From the NCBI GenBank assembly GCA_964643135.1, contig CAZXPC010000003.1, positions 6,152 through 70,151 on the forward strand: a stretch of 64,000 bases of DNA, written 5' to 3'. Positions 3,054-52,660 of this stretch are shown here, in pieces. How positions within the stretch are numbered: the stretch's first letter is position 1; each line of letters starts with the position of its first letter. Source of the DNA: an uncultured Candidatus Saccharibacteria bacterium (lineage in GTDB: Bacteria; Patescibacteriota; Minisyncoccia; UBA6257; Colwellbacteraceae). The position numbers and the translations under genes are program-made. The notes beneath the pieces are model-generated. The model did no database searches and was not told where the DNA came from. It saw only the letters and a list, made by a program, of their open reading frames with translations.

Positions 3054-4712
3054 ATGCCCATTGATGATTCTGATGTTACGCTAAAACTTAAACGCATTCA
3101 GCTTGAGGCGGAAGAACGCGAAGCCGAAAGGATAGCGGCTTCATACAACCTGCCCTATCTTTCAAGCGGTTCTTTGTCGCCTCAGCTAGAGGCTTTGCGG
3201 ATGGTTTCCGAAACAGAGGCGCGGAACGCCAAAGCGGCGGCTATAAAGTTACAAAAAAAGGAATTGGTTTTGGTTGTAGAAAATCCCAAACTAGCGGCCA
3301 CGGCTCAATTGATTGAACGGCTCCGCAATTCCGGCTATTTGATTAATTTATATGCAGTTTCTTTTTCAACTCTCAAGAGGCTTTGGGAGCATTACAGCGA
3401 GATTATTGAAACGCCGCACGAAATCACTTCGGAGATCGAAATAAGCAGTTCTGATTTTGCGAAAATCAACGGAGATATCAAAAACCTTGATAGTATCAGG
3501 GGGTACTGCGCGAAATTCGCTGGACTTTCCACGACCGATCTTCTTTCATTTATTTTCGGCGCCGCTATTGTTATCGGCGCGTCTGATGTTCACTTCGAGG
3601 CTGAGGAATCTTTGGTCAGGCTGAGGCTGCGAGTCGACGGAATTCTAAACGATATCTGCGAATTTCCGCTTGAGAATTATAAACAAGTTTTAAATCGAAT
3701 AAAATTATTGGCCGGTCTAAAGATCAACATTACCGACAGTCCGCAAGACGGCCGATTTACGATTAAGGTTGGCAAAACAGAAGTCGAAATACGCGCGGCT
3801 ATAAGCCCGTCTGAATTCGGTGAAGTTATTGTCATGAGAATTTTGAACCCGAATGAGATTGTTTTGAGTTTGGGAGAATTAGGACTCCGAAAAGACGACG
3901 AAGACGTTGCTCTCCGCGAAATTAAAAAACCAAATGGCATGATATTGGTTACCGGACCAACCGGCAGCGGTAAAACGACTACGCTCTACGCCTTTTTGAA
4001 GAAAGTTTCTAATCCGGAAATAAAAGTGATTACAATCGAAGATCCGATTGAGTATCGATTGGTTGGCATTGAGCAAACTCAAGTTGAGGCTAAGAGTGGC
4101 TACACTTTTGCGTCCGGCCTGCGATCTATTCTAAGGCAAGATCCGGACGTTATCTTAGTCGGTGAAATCAGGGATTTCGAAACGGCTGAAATTGCTATGA
4201 ATGCGTCGCTAACCGGGCACCTCGTTTTCTCAACTTTACACACCAATAATTCAGTAGGTGCTATTCCGAGGCTGATTGATCTGGGGATCAAGCCTTCGAT
4301 TATCGGCCCGGCGCTGACACTCATAATCGCGCAAAGGTTGGTGCGGAAAATTTGCCCATTTTGCCGCAAGCAATCCGAGACGACTCGGGATTTGAGCGCT
4401 AAAATAGCGAAGCTTAAAAAGACTTTGCCGACCAAGGTTCAGAATTATAACCCCACTGATGTGGTTTACGACGCGGTTGGCTGTGACAAGTGCCACGGCG
4501 GGTATAAGGGGCGAATTGGCATTTACGAGCTTTTGGAATTAACCGGAGAATACGAATCATTAATAAATAAAGATGCCACTGAATATTCAATTCGTGAATT
4601 TGCCTTGAAAAAAGGATTGGTTGAAATGCAAAAAGATGGAATTTTGAAAGTTTTGGCGGGGATGACAACGTTTGAAGAGGTGGAGAAGGCCACCGGTCCT
4701 CTCGAGTGGTAG
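3054..4712 (+). CDS. pilB: Type IV pilus assembly / type II secretion ATPase (PilB/GspE family)
   Basis: Walker A is VTGPTGSGKTTTLYAF. Asp-box and His-box regions are present. The C-terminus has a tetracysteine zinc motif (CPFC...CDKC). Length is 552 aa. Confidence 0.9.
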   Translation: MPIDDSDVTLKLKRIQLEAEEREAERIAASYNLPYLSSGSLSPQLEALRMVSETEARNAKAAAIKLQKKELVLVVENPKLAATAQLIERLRNSGYLINLYAVSFSTLKRLWEHYSEIIETPHEITSEIEISSSDFAKINGDIKNLDSIRGYCAKFAGLSTTDLLSFIFGAAIVIGASDVHFEAEESLVRLRLRVDGILNDICEFPLENYKQVLNRIKLLAGLKINITDSPQDGRFTIKVGKTEVEIRAAISPSEFGEVIVMRILNPNEIVLSLGELGLRKDDEDVALREIKKPNGMILVTGPTGSGKTTTLYAFLKKVSNPEIKVITIEDPIEYRLVGIEQTQVEAKSGYTFASGLRSILRQDPDVILVGEIRDFETAEIAMNASLTGHLVFSTLHTNNSVGAIPRLIDLGIKPSIIGPALTLIIAQRLVRKICPFCRKQSETTRDLSAKIAKLKKTLPTKVQNYNPTDVVYDAVGCDKCHGGYKGRIGIYELLELTGEYESLINKDATEYSIREFALKKGLVEMQKDGILKVLAGMTTFEEVEKATGPLEW

Positions 4713-14677: not shown

Positions 14678-14904
14678 GGATTTTATGTATGTGCTACATA
14701 GTACATAACTCCCCTATCCCTGTCAATCTTAAGTAAAAAAAGAGGCCCGTGGTGTTCGACTTTAATTTGTCGAATCCGCTGACGGCTATGCTACTAGGCG
14801 AAAAGGCTTTCCTCACGACCCTGAGAGATCCGGTAGAGGAGTTCTTCCCAGCCTTGGATGTCGAGCTTCCTGGTTCCCCTCGGGTTGCGGTTTCTCATGG
14901 CCTG

Positions 14905-15030
14905 TCACTTCTGTTTGGACCGAGCGAGCTCCCGGTCGAGTTGTTCTTTAGCGGCCTTGGATTCGTTGAGCCAAAGGTACTCACGCCTCAATGTATCCTT
15001 CGCGTTCTCTTCGTCGTCAGAACTGAACAT
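14905..15030 (-). CDS. Candidate 41-aa small ORF (MFSSDDEENAKDTLRREYLWLNESKAAKEQLDRELARSKQK) downstream of a TTGACA promoter module
   Basis: Hand-translated on the minus strand. A TTGACA-17-TTATCC element sits about 45 bp upstream. Competes with the plus-strand GTG-start ORF 14749-15042. Speculative. Confidence 0.25.
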   Translation of the reverse strand: MFSSDDEENAKDTLRREYLWLNESKAAKEQLDRELARSKQK

Positions 15031-15294
15031 GAAATAACCTAAGTCTAGGATAACATGATGGAAGTATTCTTGTCAAGTCCCTGATGGGGATGAAGCTTGG
15101 TCGTGTAAAACATCTGTAAAACAATTTAGCCCCATGTTTTATTGAGTTTATCAGTTTGTTTCACAAAAATGGTTTGTGAGAACGGCAAACATCAGGAATT
15201 CGAGAATTCAAAAAACCTAGTAAAACAGGGGTGTTAAACAAATTTGGGAAACCAGTGTGAGTACGTGAAACAATTGCTTCAGAGGCGGCAAACT

Positions 15295-15654
15295 CTAAAT
15301 ATTCTCGTAGTGTCTTGCCGAATGCGAGTTGCCGTTTAGAGTTATTGTAATAACATCAAGTCTCCAGCCCTTTCCGTCGTCTTTATTTTGGAAGTATATG
15401 TTGGCGTAGACATTACATGCTCGTTTGAACTTCTGAATCTTATGGGAGGTCATTTGGTCCTCTGGCGCTATTTCTCCGCCGGCACTGGTTTTAACCTCGA
15501 CAAAGACCAGGGTGCCATCAGGGTCAATAGTTATTATGTCTATTTCGCCCCACTTTTGGCGATGGTTTCGGGCTATTATTCTGTAACCTTTCTTAGCCAA
15601 ATACCGGCAGGCGAGATCCTCGCCTAATTTACCTGTTTCTGATTTATTATTCAT
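15295..15654 (-). CDS. yraN: YraN family (UPF0102) putative endonuclease
   Basis: GKLGEDLACRYLAKKGYRIIARNHR..GEIDIITID..LVFVEVK, the PD-(D/E)xK-like YraN pattern. Length is 119 aa. Confidence 0.85.
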   Translation of the reverse strand: MNNKSETGKLGEDLACRYLAKKGYRIIARNHRQKWGEIDIITIDPDGTLVFVEVKTSAGGEIAPEDQMTSHKIQKFKRACNVYANIYFQNKDDGKGWRLDVITITLNGNSHSARHYENI

Positions 15655-15743
15655 AATCGATGTTTGCCGTTCTCACAAGTCAAAGGCTATAATTATGTTA
15701 TAGAGTATAACACTAAAACAGTGGGAAACGTGAAACATTACGC

Positions 15744-16208
15744 ATGATCCTTAGTAATGAATATATCAGGGGTTTAATTGATGGAGAAGGCTGCTTTTCC
15801 TTTTGTACTATCCCTAGTTCTAAGAAGTTAGAAGGCAAGTTGATCAGGCAGAAAATCCCGGCTTTCTTACTAAATATGCATGTCAGAGATAAAGATTTGG
15901 TCCAAGGCGTTAGAGATCATTTGGGCTTGCGCAATAGGGTTTACGAATATAGGAGTACCCCATTACACGGGCATAATAAAAGTTATTTGAGAGGGAATAA
16001 GGCAGTGCTAATAGTTAGAGATCTCGGCCAGCTTAAAAATAAAATAGTACCTTTTTTCTACGGTAGGCTGAAAGGACATAAGGGGGAACAATTTAATATT
16101 TGGTTAGACAAGATAGGAAGCGACCCAGAAGTGGTTGATGACTATCGGTTGATATACCGTCTTCACAAGTCGGGTTGGTTTGAAAATAACCCAAAATATT
16201 CAGACTGA
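15744..16208 (+). CDS. Free-standing single-motif LAGLIDADG homing endonuclease
   Basis: YIRGLIDGEGCFSF is the LAGLIDADG motif. The downstream KAVLIVRDLGQLKNKIVPFFYGRLKGHKGEQFNIW matches the LAGLIDADG_3 core. Length is 154 aa. Confidence 0.8.
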   Translation: MILSNEYIRGLIDGEGCFSFCTIPSSKKLEGKLIRQKIPAFLLNMHVRDKDLVQGVRDHLGLRNRVYEYRSTPLHGHNKSYLRGNKAVLIVRDLGQLKNKIVPFFYGRLKGHKGEQFNIWLDKIGSDPEVVDDYRLIYRLHKSGWFENNPKYSD

Positions 16209-16218
16209 AACTTATTTG

Positions 16219-16290
16219 TGCGCGGTGAGGGATTCGAACCCCCGGCCTTGATGGTGTAAACATCCTGCTCTGCCGCTGAGCTAACCGCGC
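16219..16290 (-). tRNA. tRNA-Val (anticodon TAC)
   Basis: Cloverleaf folded by hand. Acceptor GCGCGGT/ACCGCGC. T-arm GGGGG-TTCGAAT-CCCTC. Anticodon loop TTTACAC. Discriminator A. Confidence 0.8.
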
Positions 16291-16816: not shown

Positions 16817-19264
16817 TTGAAGTTGTATATGGTCATTTTACTAATTTCATTAATTTTAGCGGCGGCCGTTTTGGCGGGAGTCGTGTTTTTCTTGGTCGGC
16901 AAGAAAAGATTGGTGGCCATGGTCACGAGATCGCTGAACTCGAGATTAATTTCGGTTTCGTTGCCCAAGAATTTGGACAAAGAACAGAAGCCAGACAAAG
17001 AAATAATCGCGCCGATGGAACAGTTCTATAGCGCGCTCGGAAGCTTGCACCTCAAAAAAGAGAAATGGTGGGCGCCGAAGCAATACATTGTTTTTGAACT
17101 GGCGGTGCCTCATATCGGGGAACAGATTTCTTTCTATGTTTCAGCCAGAAGCCGGATCATGGCTGATATTCAAAAACAGATCTACGCTTATTTCCCGAAA
17201 GCACAGATTAGCGAGATTGAAGATTATAATATTTTTAACCCGACCGGAGTTTCGGTTGGATCATTTGTGAAATTAGAGCACTCGAGCTCTTTGCCGGTCA
17301 GAACCTACAAGGAGATGGAGACCGATCCGCTCCGCGAAATTACCAATGCCCTTTCAAAATTAAAAGAAGTGGGGGAGGGCGCGGCTTTGCAGCTGGTTCT
17401 CAGACCTGCGAATAAGAGAAATCGGAGCAAGGGAATGGCGATCGAGCATCTTCTACGCCAAGGTAAAACCGTGGAAGGAGCGATGAAAGAAGTCGAAAGA
17501 GGCATTGTTTCAGGCGTCTTAAGAGAACTTTTTTACCCGACCAAGAAAGAAGAGCCCAAGACGGTGCAGCCGCCGATAAAAGTTTCGGAAGATCTAATCA
17601 AGCAGGTTGAGAATAAAATCTCTAAGCCCCAATTCGATGTGAATATCCGTTTAGCGGCCTCAGCTAAAGAGTATCGTGAGGCGAATGACATTTTGCGTCA
17701 GCTCCAGAACGCCTTTTCGCAGTTTAATAATCCCGCCCTGAATCAGTTCGATATTATTGAGCCCAACCCGCGCTCTTTAAAGAAACTGTTCTTTAATTTT
17801 TCATATCGGATGTTCGATGAAAAGCAAAAAATGATCTTGTCTTCAGATGAATTGACCGGTATTTATCATTTTCCGAACACCAAACTTGAGACGCCGAGAA
17901 TTAGAGAGACCAAGTCTAAAGTTTCGGAACCGCCGGCAGAATTGCCGCGCGAAGGCCTTTTGATCGGTAAAAATATTTATCGCGGCGAGGATCGGCCCAT
18001 ATACATGGCCAAAGACGACCGGCGTCGGCACCTCTATATAATCGGACAAACTGGAACCGGTAAGAGTAAGGAGATTCAGAGCATGATTATCCAGGACATT
18101 AGGAATGGCGAAGGCGTCGGGCTCATTGATCCGCACGGCGACATCGCTGAAGATGTTTTAGGCTTTATACCGGAGGAAAGGTACAAAGACGTTGTTTTGA
18201 TCGATCCTTCTAACCTGGCTATGCCGGTTGGGCTTAATATGCTCGAGTTCGACCCGAAATTCCCTGAGCAAAAAACTTTTGTGATTAACGAGCTCATGAA
18301 TATTTTTGACAAGCTCTACGATTTGAAAGCGACCGGCGGGCCGATCTTTGAGCAATATACCCGCAATGCTTTGCAACTCTTAATGGAATACCCGGAGCGG
18401 GGATACACAATTCTGGAAATCCCGCGCGTTTTGGCTGACAAGGAATTCCGAAAAGGCTTGCTCGCAACATGTACTAATATTTTGGTTAAAGATTTCTGGG
18501 AAAAAGAGGCTGAAAAAGCTGGCGGGGAAGCTTCGCTCCAGAATTTGGTTCCTTACATTACTTCCAAATTCAACGTCTTCTTGGGCAACGACTATATCCG
18601 GCCGATTATCGCCCAGTCCAAGAGCACGATCCACTTCCGCGAAATCATGGATGAGAAAAAAATCTTGATTGTTAATTTGACGAAAGGACGGTTGGGAGAT
18701 ATCAACGCCTCGCTTTTGGGAATGATCGTAATCGGCAAGATATTAAAGGCGGCCTTTTCACGAGTCGACATTAAAGATGAGAATTTGAGGAAAGATCTTT
18801 ATTTGTATATCGACGAGTTCCAAAATTTTGCCACCGATTCGATTGCCACCATTTTATCCGAAGCCCGCAAGTACAGGTTAGATTTGATTATTGGCCACCA
18901 ATTTATTGAGCAACTAAAGAAAGAGATTAAAGATGCGGTTTTCGGTAACGTCGGCAATATCATGGCCCTCCGGGTTGGCGCAACCGATGCAGAATTTCTG
19001 GCCAAGCAATTTGAGCCGGTCTTCGATCAGAACGATTTGGTTAATATTGATAACTATCACGCTTATGTGAAACTTTTGATAAATGGAAAGACCACGAAGC
19101 CTTTCTCGATTGAATTTTATCCTCCGGAAAAGGGCGTTACAGGGTTGGCGGACAATATTAGGAAGCTCTCATCTCTTAAATACGGCCGCGAAAGGGCGGT
19201 AGTCGAGAAAGAAATTATGCTTCGCCTGAGACCCGAGTATAAACCGGCGGAGCCGGGGGTCTAA
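16817..19264 (+). CDS. Membrane-anchored FtsK/HerA-superfamily ATPase of the type IV secretion type (VirB4/VirD4/TraG-like)
   Basis: N-terminal TM helix. Walker A HLYIIGQTGTGKSK at about aa 410, followed by IDPHGD. Walker B LYLYIDEFQNF. Length is 815 aa. Confidence 0.7.
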   Translation: MKLYMVILLISLILAAAVLAGVVFFLVGKKRLVAMVTRSLNSRLISVSLPKNLDKEQKPDKEIIAPMEQFYSALGSLHLKKEKWWAPKQYIVFELAVPHIGEQISFYVSARSRIMADIQKQIYAYFPKAQISEIEDYNIFNPTGVSVGSFVKLEHSSSLPVRTYKEMETDPLREITNALSKLKEVGEGAALQLVLRPANKRNRSKGMAIEHLLRQGKTVEGAMKEVERGIVSGVLRELFYPTKKEEPKTVQPPIKVSEDLIKQVENKISKPQFDVNIRLAASAKEYREANDILRQLQNAFSQFNNPALNQFDIIEPNPRSLKKLFFNFSYRMFDEKQKMILSSDELTGIYHFPNTKLETPRIRETKSKVSEPPAELPREGLLIGKNIYRGEDRPIYMAKDDRRRHLYIIGQTGTGKSKEIQSMIIQDIRNGEGVGLIDPHGDIAEDVLGFIPEERYKDVVLIDPSNLAMPVGLNMLEFDPKFPEQKTFVINELMNIFDKLYDLKATGGPIFEQYTRNALQLLMEYPERGYTILEIPRVLADKEFRKGLLATCTNILVKDFWEKEAEKAGGEASLQNLVPYITSKFNVFLGNDYIRPIIAQSKSTIHFREIMDEKKILIVNLTKGRLGDINASLLGMIVIGKILKAAFSRVDIKDENLRKDLYLYIDEFQNFATDSIATILSEARKYRLDLIIGHQFIEQLKKEIKDAVFGNVGNIMALRVGATDAEFLAKQFEPVFDQNDLVNIDNYHAYVKLLINGKTTKPFSIEFYPPEKGVTGLADNIRKLSSLKYGRERAVVEKEIMLRLRPEYKPAEPGV

Positions 19265-19618
19265 TTCTGTTCCACAGTTTCTCAACATGTGGATAAGGTG
19301 TTTGTTTTCGGTGGATAAAAAATGGCCAATCAGAGAAAGGTTGATTCAATGATTGGCACGGCGCTTTTTCACAATTCCCCAGATCCAGGCGAGGAAAGGG
19401 AAGAGCAGGATGAAGAGTATGCCGCCTATAGCTATGATCGATGCTGGTGGAAGCTGGAGTACGGACAACGCGACTATTTCGATCCCATCTGCCTAATTTC
19501 AGGCACGGGTCAGATTACTCAATTTTTATGAGGCAGTCAACATTCAGGTTCCCCATCTTAAATTGCTTTAATGACGGACGCATTGTAGATTTATATTCAT
19601 AAACCTTATTGAAAGAAT

Positions 19619-51109: not shown

Positions 51110-51180
51110 GCGGGCCCACGAGGATTTGAACCTCGATCTTTCCTTTTGGAGAGGAAAATTCTGCCATTGAACTATGGACC
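51110..51180 (-). tRNA. tRNA-Trp (anticodon CCA)
   Basis: Hand-folded. Acceptor GGGTCCA/TGGGCCC. Anticodon stem TTCCT/AGGAA, loop CTCCAAA. T-arm CGAGG-TTCAAAT-CCTCG. Its 3' end abuts the Nudix start codon. Confidence 0.8.
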
Positions 51181-51243
51181 CTGGTTAACAAATACTAATA
51201 CAAAAACGTTGAGTTATACAACTCAAAAGTCTTGATTCAACTG

Positions 51244-51314
51244 AGCGAGTAACGGGAGTCGAACCCGTATCTAGTCCTTGGCAAGGACTCATAATGCCGC
51301 TATACGATACCCGC
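51244..51314 (-). tRNA. tRNA-Gly (anticodon GCC)
   Basis: Acceptor GCGGGTA/TACTCGC (one G-U pair). Anticodon stem AGTCC/GGACT, loop TTGCCAA. T-arm ACGGG-TTCGACT-CCCGT. The D-arm pairing is irregular. Confidence 0.6.
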
Positions 51315-51440
51315 GATGGTTAATACTTTATAATTTTTTCGCTAATAAATCAATGTTTTATTTTTCGATTCTAAACGTCTTTATATTTACACATCTCCCG
51401 GGCTGGATTAGAATCTAGGAGCGCTTAGGATGGTCTATTT

Positions 51441-52055
51441 ATGAAATCAATCACTTTCAAAAGCCACTGGTTTTGGATCCTGATAATTATTCTTAGCACG
51501 CTTTTTGCTGTGTATATCGGTTTGAGGCTATTGGGTCAGACTATCTTTGTTCCCAAGGGTTTTTTGGAGGCGCGGACCAGGGGAGCCGACATAGCGAATA
51601 GCATTGTGGCCCTTTCGACCGATTCCGTTAACAATCTTAAAACCATTCAACTGCAGAACGACCTTAAGAATTATGAGGACGGCTTAAATTCGGTTATCAA
51701 AGAGATTGCCCGTAATGAAGATGCGCGCAAGGACGCGATTAGCCTTTCCTCTCAGCTCGAGACGATGGCCGGCAGCATTGCCGACATCCGGCCTAAGACC
51801 GCTTCAGATATGGCGCTCAGGGCGATCATCATTGAGTCTCAAATTGCGCAAAGGCTGATCAACTACAACGGCTACATCGCCGAACTTCTGAGCGATTTCC
51901 AATCCAGATTTGCCAAAGGCTCGAAGGTGAACGAACAGGCGGTTAAAGACTTGATTTCAAAAATGGACGGCGAGATATCCTCGATCAATGATTTGAACGA
52001 ACAATATCGGGGCTTGATGAGCCAGTTTGATGAACTAACCTCGGTTAAACATTAA
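51441..52055 (+). CDS. Hypothetical protein with an N-terminal TM anchor and a coiled-coil-like body
   Basis: ORF only. TM segment WFWILIIILSTLFAVYIGL. Confidence 0.45.
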   Translation: MKSITFKSHWFWILIIILSTLFAVYIGLRLLGQTIFVPKGFLEARTRGADIANSIVALSTDSVNNLKTIQLQNDLKNYEDGLNSVIKEIARNEDARKDAISLSSQLETMAGSIADIRPKTASDMALRAIIIESQIAQRLINYNGYIAELLSDFQSRFAKGSKVNEQAVKDLISKMDGEISSINDLNEQYRGLMSQFDELTSVKH

Positions 52056-52061
52056 AGTTTG

Positions 52062-52133
52062 TGCCGGATCCCAGAATCGAACTGGGTACGCCAGCCTCTT
52101 CAGGGCTGCGCTCTGCCAATGAGCTAATCCGGC
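52062..52133 (-). tRNA. tRNA-Phe (anticodon GAA)
   Basis: Acceptor GCCGGAT/ATCCGGC. D GCTC/GAGC. Anticodon stem CAGCC/GGCTG, loop CTGAAGA. T-arm CCCAG-TTCGATT-CTGGG. Confidence 0.8.
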
Positions 52134-52204
52134 GATACTAGAGATAGTAACTTCTGGCGATTAAAATTGCAATTGAGTATTATTCGCTATATTCTGAAAG
52201 CCTA

Positions 52205-52276
52205 GCCCTTGTCGTTCAATGGACAGGACAGAGGTTTCCTAAACCTTAAATGGAGGTTCGATTCCTCCCGAGGGCA
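52205..52276 (+). tRNA. tRNA-Arg (anticodon CCT)
   Basis: Acceptor GCCCTTG/CGAGGGC. Anticodon stem GAGGT/ACCTT, loop TTCCTAA. T-arm GGAGG-TTCGATT-CCTCC. Confidence 0.7.
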
Positions 52277-52338
52277 CAAAATTGGCAAATTTGAATAATT
52301 TATTTTACACTGGTAAAACCTCCGGAACGAGGTTAGAC

Positions 52339-52410
52339 CCTCCTGTAGTTCAATGGATAGAATAGGGAACTTCTAATTCCTTGATCGAGGTTCGATTCCT
52401 CGCGGGAGGA
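52339..52410 (+). tRNA. tRNA-Arg (anticodon TCT)
   Basis: Acceptor CCTCCTG/CGGGAGG. Anticodon stem GGGAA/TTCCT, loop CTTCTAA. T-arm CGAGG-TTCGATT-CCTCG. Confidence 0.7.
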
Positions 52411-52420
52411 CAAGCAGCGA

Positions 52421-52491
52421 CGGGCCGTCGTATATTGGTAGTATACCTGTTTTGGGAACAGGCGGGCTGGGTTCGATTCCCAGCGGCCCGA
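52421..52491 (+). tRNA. tRNA-Pro (anticodon TGG)
   Basis: Acceptor CGGGCCG/CGGCCCG. Anticodon stem CCTGT/ACAGG, loop TTTGGGA. T-arm CTGGG-TTCGATT-CCCAG. The D stem has G-U pairs. Confidence 0.65.
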
Positions 52492-52557
52492 CATCTTAAA
52501 AATAAATAGAGATTTGTAGCAAAAAATAATATATTGTTATAGTATTGTTTTCATCAT

Positions 52558-52629
52558 GGTGCCTATAGCTCAATGGTAGAGCGCCTCCCTGTGGAGGAGG
52601 ATACACGGGTTCGATCCCCGTTAGGCACC
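52558..52629 (+). tRNA. tRNA-His (anticodon GTG) with an encoded G-1
   Basis: Extra 5' G before acceptor GTGCCTA/TAGGCAC. Discriminator C. Anticodon stem CCTCC/GGAGG, loop CTGTGGA. T-arm ACGGG-TTCGATC-CCCGT. Confidence 0.85.
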
Positions 52630-52660
52630 CAATTATAAACTGTCGGCCGAATTAAAAAGA

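Follow-up and report, generated by a model that had tools for sequence, protein, structure and literature searches.

A likely homing-endonuclease cassette in a parS-like site array upstream of yraN in Patescibacteria

Introduction

Two nuclease genes stand side by side in a 64,000-nucleotide stretch of a genome from an uncultured member of the Patescibacteria (contig CAZXPC010000003.1, positions 6,152 to 70,151; hereafter, the window). One is yraN, and the other encodes a LAGLIDADG endonuclease, which we call LAG, as we do its relatives in other genomes. Short repeats surround the two genes, and a tRNA gene lies just beyond LAG. What kind of element is this? An initial annotation, made from the window alone, proposed a selfish or mobile module of two nucleases or else a shared operator system. 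We compared the window with about 150 related loci, which are labelled with L-numbers. On balance, the sequence comparisons make it probable that LAG is a free-standing homing-endonuclease cassette and that its fixed homing locus lies inside a parS-like array belonging to the host. In our best reading, yraN is resident in the host, and the tRNA gene adjoins LAG only incidentally.

Results

A free-standing endonuclease gene next to yraN

The genes of the locus are as follows.

15295 to 15654, minus strand: yraN (UPF0102), a resident host gene for a PD-(D/E)xK nuclease of 119 amino acids (PF02021 at 80.3 bits; E37, D39, E53, and K55 invariant).
15744 to 16208, plus strand: LAG, a free-standing gene for a single-domain LAGLIDADG endonuclease of 154 amino acids, likely a mobile cassette (Pfam, fold, family profile, and a divergence island with discordant history).
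16218 to 16290, minus strand: tRNA-Val(UAC), a convergent neighbor and syntenic landmark that lies outside the element (synteny in relatives).

The open reading frame (ORF) of LAG contains the single LAGLIDADG motif that the initial annotation described (YIRGLIDGEGCF). The core had been described as of the LAGLIDADG_3 type, and Pfam places it in LAGLIDADG_1 (PF00961) instead, with 26.2 bits, just over the cutoff of 23.1. An AlphaFold2 model of the protein (predicted local distance difference test, or pLDDT, of 93.3) has I-OnuI, I-PanMI, I-SmaMI, I-TnaI, and the bI3 maturase as its top Foldseek matches. When a profile of the family was compared with solved LAGLIDADG enzymes, it matched them at E = 4e-19, with those of the I-OnuI type at E of about 1e-19.

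A database search returned 75 relatives, which are mostly 140–185 amino acids long (with a few shorter fragments) and mostly match PF00961; the only named match is from a candidate-phyla bacterium. Scanning one genome for each GTDB species, we identified 86 relatives of LAG and retained 80 of these, all from metagenome-assembled genomes that are labelled as Patescibacteria. There is no NCBIfam model for the family. We rejected a phage origin because tblastn of LAG against 50,697 phage records gave no match. In our reading, these are Patescibacteria-specific, free-standing homing-endonuclease genes with one domain and about 150 amino acids.

For counts of conserved residues, and for the site-bracketing test below, we used 67 full-length copies. 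The family alignment has numerous invariant positions. The acid that ends the motif (E15) is present in the window's protein and in 63 of the 67 relatives, and the lysine of the GxK motif (K113) is present in 65. Judging from a hidden Markov model alignment, E15 and K113 would be equivalent to the catalytic residues of the I-OnuI family. LAG encodes an intact single-domain enzyme, which presumably acts as a homodimer.

LAG is an independent ORF that has its own intergenic region, and we found no intron, intein, or RNA family around it. Because it does not lie in a self-splicing intron or an intein, it is of the free-standing type, as the initial annotation had it. A known RNA element at this locus was also rejected, as Rfam identifies only tRNAs in the window and no intron family.

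The assignment of the neighboring gene to the YraN family was borne out. Its match to PF02021 is far above the cutoff of 23.6 bits, and the four residues of its PD-(D/E)xK site are invariant in 67 of 67 relatives. At the equivalog level of NCBIfam, the best model (NF009154) gives 88.1 bits, which is below the cutoff of 109; this is a divergent YraN from the candidate phyla radiation (CPR), and therefore the family-level assignment rests on Pfam. YraN is an endonuclease that is required, along with ComM, to resolve the displacement loops (D-loops) of transformation (bioRxiv 10.1101/2024.02.06.579203). The start codon of yraN is not reliably annotated in this clade because near-identical contigs (L002–L007, the P0004 cluster) have YraN called at either 124 or 150 amino acids. 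The 150-amino-acid call would span the spacer and reach to 13 nt from the ATG of LAG. The P0004 species is represented on 42 contigs.

In the window, yraN and LAG are head-to-head and 89 bp apart. The 3' end of the convergent tRNA-Val(UAC) gene is 9–10 nt past the stop codon of LAG, as had been reported. This adjacency had been taken as a sign of a mobile module. In relatives with the same holA-rpsT neighborhood, the same tRNA gene is a syntenic landmark that lies anywhere from 58 bp to 3.7 kb downstream. The tRNA gene abuts LAG in the window because the intervening genes were lost, not because the tRNA gene is a target. A tRNA-targeted integrative element was rejected given the lack of an integrase, the lack of a repeat of the tRNA's 3' end, and the variable distance to the tRNA gene.

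The repeats belong to a family of parS-type sites

The repeats and sites around the two genes are as follows.

15105 to 15272, no strand assigned: array of parS-type half-sites (GTAAAACA, GTGAAACA, GGCAAACA, and GTTAAACA) downstream of yraN (8-mer count).
15174 to 15193, plus strand: left arm of the inverted repeat, 101 nt past the stop codon of yraN (exact repeat).
15256 to 15272, plus strand: third copy of a 17-mer, TGTGAGTACGTGAAACA, which includes the first ACGTGAAACA (sequence match).
15659 to 15678, minus strand: right arm of the inverted repeat, made up of the parS left half TGTTTGCCG and TTCTCACA, over the candidate −35 element of LAG (exact repeat).
15664 to 15693, plus strand: candidate sigma-70-like promoter of LAG, TTGCCG-18-TATAAT (match to the consensus only).
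15696 to 15712, no strand assigned: perfect 17-bp palindrome, TGTTATAG-A-GTATAACA, at the center of the divergent promoter region (single occurrence in the window).
15721 to 15737, plus strand: site abutting the start codon of LAG, GTGGGAAACGTGAAACA, whose right half is a parS half-site and holds the second ACGTGAAACA (sequence).

The initial annotation reported that a perfect inverted repeat of 20 bp frames yraN, and this is exact: TTGTGAGAACGGCAAACATC and its reverse complement have no further match in 64 kb, even if three mismatches are allowed (0 expected). The right arm lies 4 nt, not 5, from the yraN ATG. The reported 10-mer direct repeat, ACGTGAAACA, also exists (two copies in the window versus 0.06 expected), at 15263–15272 and 15728–15737 rather than at the coordinates first given. 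The second copy ends 6 nt ahead of the ATG of LAG. A terminator or attenuator had been suggested for the 20-mer, and we rejected this because neither arm has a local hairpin or a site that resembles a terminator.

Neither repeat is private to the locus. Both belong to a family of parS-type sites of the form TGTTTnnCGnnAAACA, which occur as recurrent palindromes in the spacers of relatives and form arrays there. The "inverted repeat" is two copies of an asymmetric 17-mer, TGTGAG(A/T)ACG(G/T)(C/G)AAACA, in inverted orientation on either side of yraN; this 17-mer is found three times (15175–15191 and 15256–15272 on the plus strand, 15661–15677 on the minus strand). The 10-mer is the right half of the 17-mer and represents the shared parS half-site. 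The whole window has 15 half-site 8-mers, and eight of them are found within 15105–15737. Between the window and a relative, L010, the two arms covary (TGTGAGAACG versus TGTGTAGACG in both arms). In many relatives, a site that ends in AAACA lies 0–3 nt ahead of the ATG of LAG, and the 17-bp palindrome recurs (with up to three mismatches) in 14 relatives and is confined to the spacer between yraN and LAG.

The placement of the repeats suits a shared operator, as was first suggested: they overlie the divergent promoter region, in positions like those of operators. Since the −35 element of the candidate LAG promoter falls inside the right arm, a protein bound to the sites could limit the expression of both genes.

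Across the relatives, matches to TGTTTNNCGNNAAACA with at most two mismatches occur at 4.6 per kb in the spacer, 2.8 per kb within 300 bp past the stop codon of LAG, and 0.07 per kb in the remaining 404 kb of flanks, and they almost never occur more than 300 bp away. Five loci (L023, L073, L074, L095, and L109) contain exact copies of TGTTTCACGTGAAACA. This 16-mer is the canonical ParB chromosomal centromere site, parS, and it would be the ancestral or canonical form of the array sites. The published texts that print it, as returned by a full-text literature search, all concern ParB-family proteins (ParB/parS or Noc). A LexA (SOS) box, which we considered for the TGT..ACA shape, was dropped because the motif is identical to parS.

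The sites often bracket a gene. With a match of at least 13 of 14 positions required, and with 45 nt before the ATG compared to 130 nt after the stop codon, LAG is bracketed in 20 of the 67 loci (3.3% in a cross-locus control). In many relatives, the typical arrangement is a site, then the ATG, the gene, its stop codon, and one or more further sites. A minority (the window, L010, L011, L086, and, in the bracketing test, L031) have sites that bracket yraN. Some of the arrays after the LAG stop codon are dense, with three to seven near-identical sites (L078 4455–4780, L088 930–1030, and L074 890–1650). These have an irregular spacing of 40–100 bp and include some larger palindromes, such as GTGTGAAACA-TTATAA-TGTTTCACAC.

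The arrays appear to be a host feature

We gathered yraN loci irrespective of LAG by scanning metagenomes with an alignment of 16 YraN sequences. This gave 16 Paceibacteria-like loci, whose YraN is at least 54% identical to the LAG-associated set, and another 64 loci that are more distant. Of the 16, just five carry LAG and 11 do not, yet 13 have sites within 600 bp upstream of yraN (3.6 per kb versus 0.18 per kb elsewhere). In the 64 distant loci, the density of sites is the same as the background. Among the loci that lack LAG, L109 packs at least six palindromes into 500 bp, and in L101 a mixture of full, split, and half sites extends over about 400 bp. The split parS sites of L101 (2230–2410) have half-sites 7 bp apart, TGTTTCACG-CTTAAAG-CGTGAAACA and TGTTTTACG-CTTAAAG-TGTAAAACA, and this insert is an unusual spacing for a site of a ParB dimer.

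A further comparison is provided by L035 and L071. Their flanks are about 83% identical and they have a site variant in common (TGTAAATCAGCAAACA), but their LAG proteins are only 52% identical. The array thus appears to belong to the host, with or without LAG, and the variant of the site seems to follow the host lineage. Because arrays are found without LAG and because L035 and L071 share their sites, we argue against LAG as the cognate binder that co-evolves with these sites. A ParB or ParB-like protein would be the parsimonious binder. The diversity of the sites among these genomes is unusual for parS, and no report on either parS or ParB in Patescibacteria came up in a literature search.

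LAG has a fixed address that is patchily occupied

In 68 of the 80 species loci, yraN (minus strand) and LAG (plus strand) are head-to-head, and the gap between them has a median of 73 bp. In another three (L080, L082, and L085), LAG and yraN are co-directional, in that order, with a 4-nt overlap, and in one locus yraN is 900 bp away. An invertible (phase-variable) segment was rejected because the orientation of yraN relative to the flanks is constant across the 68 divergent loci and there is no recombinase nearby. In L040, L050, and L072, LAG is beside rpsT and yraN is not present. The copy in L040 (3977–4465), which has this rpsT-LAG arrangement, has lysine in place of the catalytic acid (GLVESKGSF). 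These three loci (L072 at 3983–4468) have in common a conserved non-coding segment downstream of LAG, with a split parS, TGTTTCACAT-GCG-TGTTAAACA, and TGTGGAAAC/TGTGGATTA motifs.

The flanks of LAG loci vary among lineages; about 20 loci have the holA-rpsT neighborhood of the window. We also found occupied and empty alleles whose flanks are syntenic on both sides: L064 versus L106, L066 versus L093, and both L023 and L034 versus L100. The flanks in these pairs are only about 70% identical, so the exact insertion target is not definable from them.

The initial annotation held that conserved synteny would indicate a domesticated gene. The synteny is there, with the same place kept in 68 of 80 loci, but we do not favor domestication. 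A fixed position is more likely to result from site-specific re-invasion because occupancy is patchy, pseudogenes occur, and the phylogeny is discordant.

LAG has a discordant history and decays

A mirror-tree test with all 67 pairs gave r = 0.25, and we superseded it with comparisons of syntenic neighbors, close pairs, and sliding windows. Among 11 syntenic loci, the protein distances for holA, rpsT, and YraN correlate with each other (r = 0.34–0.48) and not with those for LAG (r = −0.16 to 0.09). In eight of 10 pairs with YraN at least 79% identical, LAG is just 49–64% identical. Conversely, LAG is 91% identical between L075 and L076, whose YraN proteins are 62% identical, and it is 82% identical between the window and L011, whose YraN proteins are 54% identical.

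Sliding-window comparisons of four close pairs of genomes show a divergence island. Identity is 75–95% in yraN, falls to about 30–65% over the spacer and LAG, and is back to 80–95% within about 20–40 nt of the LAG stop codon. Between L035 and L071, the boundaries of the island coincide with sites. For two pairs (L038/L053 and L045/L077), divergence is greatest in the center of the ORF, which is roughly where the model has the beta-strands that contact DNA in solved LAGLIDADG enzymes. In the reverse cases (L075/L076, L038/L045, and the window and L011 over 15533–16197), the similar tract covers LAG, the spacer, and the first 120–170 nt of yraN, so that the mosaic boundary lies within yraN. Tracts that include the 5' end of yraN look as expected from co-conversion.

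Three loci (L087, L088, and L089) contain decayed LAG pseudogenes. Combined, these signatures appear to be the classical cycle of gain, decay, and loss of a homing endonuclease, at a single locus. As to the proposed module of two nucleases, the comparative data favor a selfish or mobile LAG. They leave yraN out of the module because yraN, a conserved gene of the host, tracks holA and rpsT and because relatives without LAG have the same arrays.

A proposed mechanism

We propose that the non-coding region directly upstream of yraN is the fixed chromosomal address of this family. A LAG homodimer would cut an allele of the region that has no LAG or a different one, and repair from the incoming or the sister copy would install the cassette. 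Lineages exchange the cassette horizontally, often with the spacer and the first 120–170 nt of yraN, through homologous recombination, which the enzyme's own double-strand break most likely stimulates. After it spreads, the cassette decays and then is lost. LAG may be expressed from the shared 89-bp promoter region, with TTGCCG-18-TATAAT as the candidate promoter. The target of the enzyme may be array sequence where the cassette inserts, the 5' coding region of yraN, or the sites, the last of which would be attractive for a symmetric dimer. In the lineage of the window, the sites have drifted to the lineage-specific asymmetric 17-mer, which is the right half of parS plus a TGTG element, and the genes that were formerly between LAG and tRNA-Val were deleted.

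Several observations weigh against this proposal. Both the strong conservation of position, with operons of LAG and yraN (4-nt overlap) in three genomes, and the survival of full-length ORFs without E15 (four of the 67, and also L040) argue for a host role. The correlation analysis used protein distances that are near saturation (about 0.5), and its set comprises just 11 loci. The empty alleles are metagenome contigs that are about 30% diverged from the occupied ones, with no occupied and empty pair within one species. Intact canonical parS flanks LAG in L023, L073, and L074, and these would be self-targets if parS is the target, unless they are protected. In the window, the best match to full parS (TGTTNCACGTGAAACA, a 16-bp palindrome) has four mismatches. 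Neither a search for the GERRxRA motif nor tblastn with an approximate query (Spo0J of Bacillus subtilis) revealed a ParB gene in the window or in any locus, a negative that covers these sequences only and says nothing about other parts of the genome. Finally, it is unclear what a homing endonuclease would gain from DNA transfer of the transformation type.

Alternative explanations

The alternative that survives best, though we consider it unlikely, is that hosts recruited this LAGLIDADG protein to act beside YraN in recombination or D-loop processing near the parS region, in a role such as that of a second, sequence-specific nuclease or of a targeting subunit. On this view, genomes without LAG would have lost it secondarily. 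A host role would account for the proximity to yraN in 71 of 80 species genomes, the translationally coupled operons of L080, L082, and L085, the catalytic residues that are kept in most copies, and the divergent promoter region, with common sites, that both genes share. LAG is also at least as conserved as its housekeeping neighbors (between the window and L002, LAG is 61% identical and the neighbors are 40–72% identical). Against such a role, 11 of 16 closely related loci keep yraN and the sites without LAG, LAG persists without yraN in L040, L050, and L072, and pseudogene copies occur. Nor does the history of LAG, with its divergence island, run with those of YraN, holA, and rpsT. In the study of YraN, the partner reported to co-evolve with it is ComM and not a LAGLIDADG protein (bioRxiv 10.1101/2024.02.06.579203).

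A more specific version of the homing hypothesis, in which the LAG family recognizes parS-type sites or the region of the ParB-parS complex and so is a centromere-targeting homing endonuclease, seems doubtful to us. If it were true, then pressure from the endonuclease would explain the strong diversification, in this clade, of parS, a site that hardly varies across bacteria. It would also explain why site-bracketed genes (LAG or, in the lineage of the window, yraN) behave as swappable cassettes. Occupancy by ParB would protect or silence the resident copy, and the placement at yraN would link the centromere, competence, and the spread of a selfish gene.

We have similar doubts that LAG is a DNA-binding regulator, with a homodimer on the palindromic sites or on the 17-bp palindrome acting as an autorepressor and a regulator of yraN, and with the arms forming a repression loop. 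There is a precedent in I-TevI, a homing endonuclease with autorepression. The sites do overlap the promoter-like −35 element, and they directly adjoin the start codons of both genes. The central palindrome, TGTTATAC-N-GTATAACA, is seen only in spacers of loci with LAG, those whose LAG is closest to the window's, and a few full-length copies lack the catalytic acid. On the other hand, most copies keep the catalytic residues, loci without LAG have parS-type sites too, and the site variant goes with the host and not with the LAG allele. Also, a palindrome of odd length (17 bp) does not fit LAGLIDADG dimers, which use even-length sites of about 20–22 bp, and is better suited to helix-turn-helix dimers.

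It is very improbable that the arms pair in the yraN mRNA, between its 5' and 3' untranslated regions, to sequester the ribosome-binding region or to stabilize the transcript: they do form the closing helix in the minimum-free-energy fold of a 551-nt yraN transcript (z = −3.4), they covary between the window and L010, and in relatives the repeats enclose an entire ORF, one arm being at its start codon, but any perfect 20-nt complement will pair in silico, a 3' untranslated region of at least 120 nt would be needed and there is no evidence for one, there is no local hairpin, terminator, or Rfam family, and the arrays of three to nine sites, the half-sites, the palindromic sites, and the non-transcribed or LAG-less contexts would go unexplained.

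Origin-like features and other observations near the locus

Given the parS-type sites, we considered the context of chromosome replication. A replication origin (oriC) at the locus itself was rejected because GC skew is positive and genes are co-oriented on both sides of it, and because there is no cluster of DnaA boxes at 15 kb. There is no switch of skew anywhere in the 64-kb window. Three motifs that resemble DnaA boxes (TTCCACA, TGTGGATAA, and GGTGGATAA) do occur within 60 bp at 19262–19318, among them the only perfect TTATCCACA of the window. They lie in a 354-bp spacer after the gene for an 815-amino-acid ATPase, and the skew does not switch there.

In L066, L093, and L081, DnaA boxes and AT-rich or T-rich repeats lie beside the array. 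A conserved non-coding module is found beside the array at L066 4438–5606, at L093 290–585 (minus strand), upstream of LAG in L080, L082, and L085, and in L099. It contains a perfect DnaA box, TTATCCACA (L066 and L081), at least two copies of ATGTAGGTTT(T/C)AT, whose reverse complement contains AAACCTACAT, and T-rich repeats like GTTTTTCAATTTT. In L066, the module is a gene-free region of 1.1 kb with yraN and ftsK diverging on either side. The module is a candidate for a replication origin that adjoins yraN in some Paceibacteria.

Between rpsT and the site array, at 14700–15076, the window has a patch of 50–55% GC (versus about 38–45% around it). The patch contains two small minus-strand ORFs (15030..14905, 41 amino acids, and 14898..14794, 34 amino acids) with a strong promoter-like site ahead of them (TTGACA-18-TG-TATCCT at 15076–15047). 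The public gene call in the patch is a plus-strand ORF of 96 amino acids with no family. The corresponding region of L010 cannot be aligned to the patch and has an unrelated ORF of 86 amino acids.

The 815-amino-acid protein (16817–19264), which is encoded 600 bp downstream of the endonuclease locus, has DUF8128 and DUF87 and weak matches to ATPases like TraD, VirD4, and HerA; it resembles a coupling protein. Farther away, seven tRNA genes (Trp, Gly, Phe, two for Arg, Pro, and His) lie within 1.5 kb at 51110–52630.

Discussion

What is new here, if our reading is right, is a free-standing chromosomal family of homing-endonuclease genes that has a fixed address, in a centromere-like array of sites beside the gene for a transformation nuclease. 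The homing systems of bacteria would then include a LAGLIDADG system that is chromosomal and free-standing; in Patescibacteria, these enzymes are known only from introns of rRNA and tRNA genes. The homing locus is defined and testable. The data also link parS-type arrays, in this clade specifically, to the promoter of yraN, which was itself recently tied to natural transformation. The occupied, empty, and decayed alleles provide natural material for studying how a selfish nuclease persists in genomes that are tiny and probably rely on taking up DNA. Also, the enzymes are compact (about 150 amino acids) and diverse in the region that recognizes DNA, so if they are active, they are possible scaffolds for meganucleases.

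Comparison with known systems

The window's protein has much in common with LAGLIDADG homing endonucleases (the homodimeric I-CreI/I-TnaI type and, by sequence, the I-OnuI/I-PanMI/I-AniI family): the single motif, the alpha-beta-beta-alpha-beta-beta-alpha core, the metal-binding acid, the GxK lysine, and the length of about 150 amino acids. Its closest solved relatives, in contrast, are monomeric mitochondrial enzymes with two domains, whereas it has one, and its gene lies outside any intron or intein, unlike those of classical LAGLIDADG homing endonucleases.

Among mobile genes without an intron, the phage T4 seg and mob genes are free-standing homing endonucleases of the GIY-YIG or HNH type. 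As in those phage genes, the cassette is an ORF alone between conserved genes, it is polymorphic for presence or absence, and its flanks are co-converted (here, the first 120–170 nt of yraN travel with it). It differs in that the enzyme is of the LAGLIDADG type and resides in a cellular chromosome, with no phage homologs. In the "REPtron" of repetitive extragenic palindromes (REPs) and REP-associated tyrosine transposases (RAYTs), a nuclease gene is flanked by copies of a short palindromic repeat, as it is here. REPs are dispersed across the genome and are the substrates of RAYTs, whereas the sites here are confined to one locus and exist without the nuclease gene.

The sites themselves resemble ParB-parS centromere arrays in that relatives have exact copies of TGTTTCACGTGAAACA and in that sites cluster at three to nine per 500 bp. 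The window, in contrast, has only half-sites and the asymmetric 17-mer; according to the part of the literature returned by our search, binding of a half-parS by ParB is documented in Pseudomonas aeruginosa. The array is tied to the promoter region of yraN, and its sites vary far more between genomes than parS does elsewhere.

With respect to the YraN/ComM system for transformation D-loops, the neighbor in the window is a genuine YraN whose PD-(D/E)xK site is intact, and the study of that system (bioRxiv 10.1101/2024.02.06.579203) describes neither a LAGLIDADG partner nor an association with parS. Within the Patescibacteria, LAGLIDADG genes have been described in insertion sequences or introns of rRNA and tRNA genes, for example I-ShaI (PMC11270868); where searched by term, that paper has no mention of free-standing genes or of parS. 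Those enzymes and the LAG family share the phylum, the single-domain homodimer type, and homing to a highly conserved sequence. The intron enzymes lie inside rRNA or tRNA genes and target their own insertion site, whereas the LAG family is free-standing and lies in a non-coding array of parS-type sites beside yraN.

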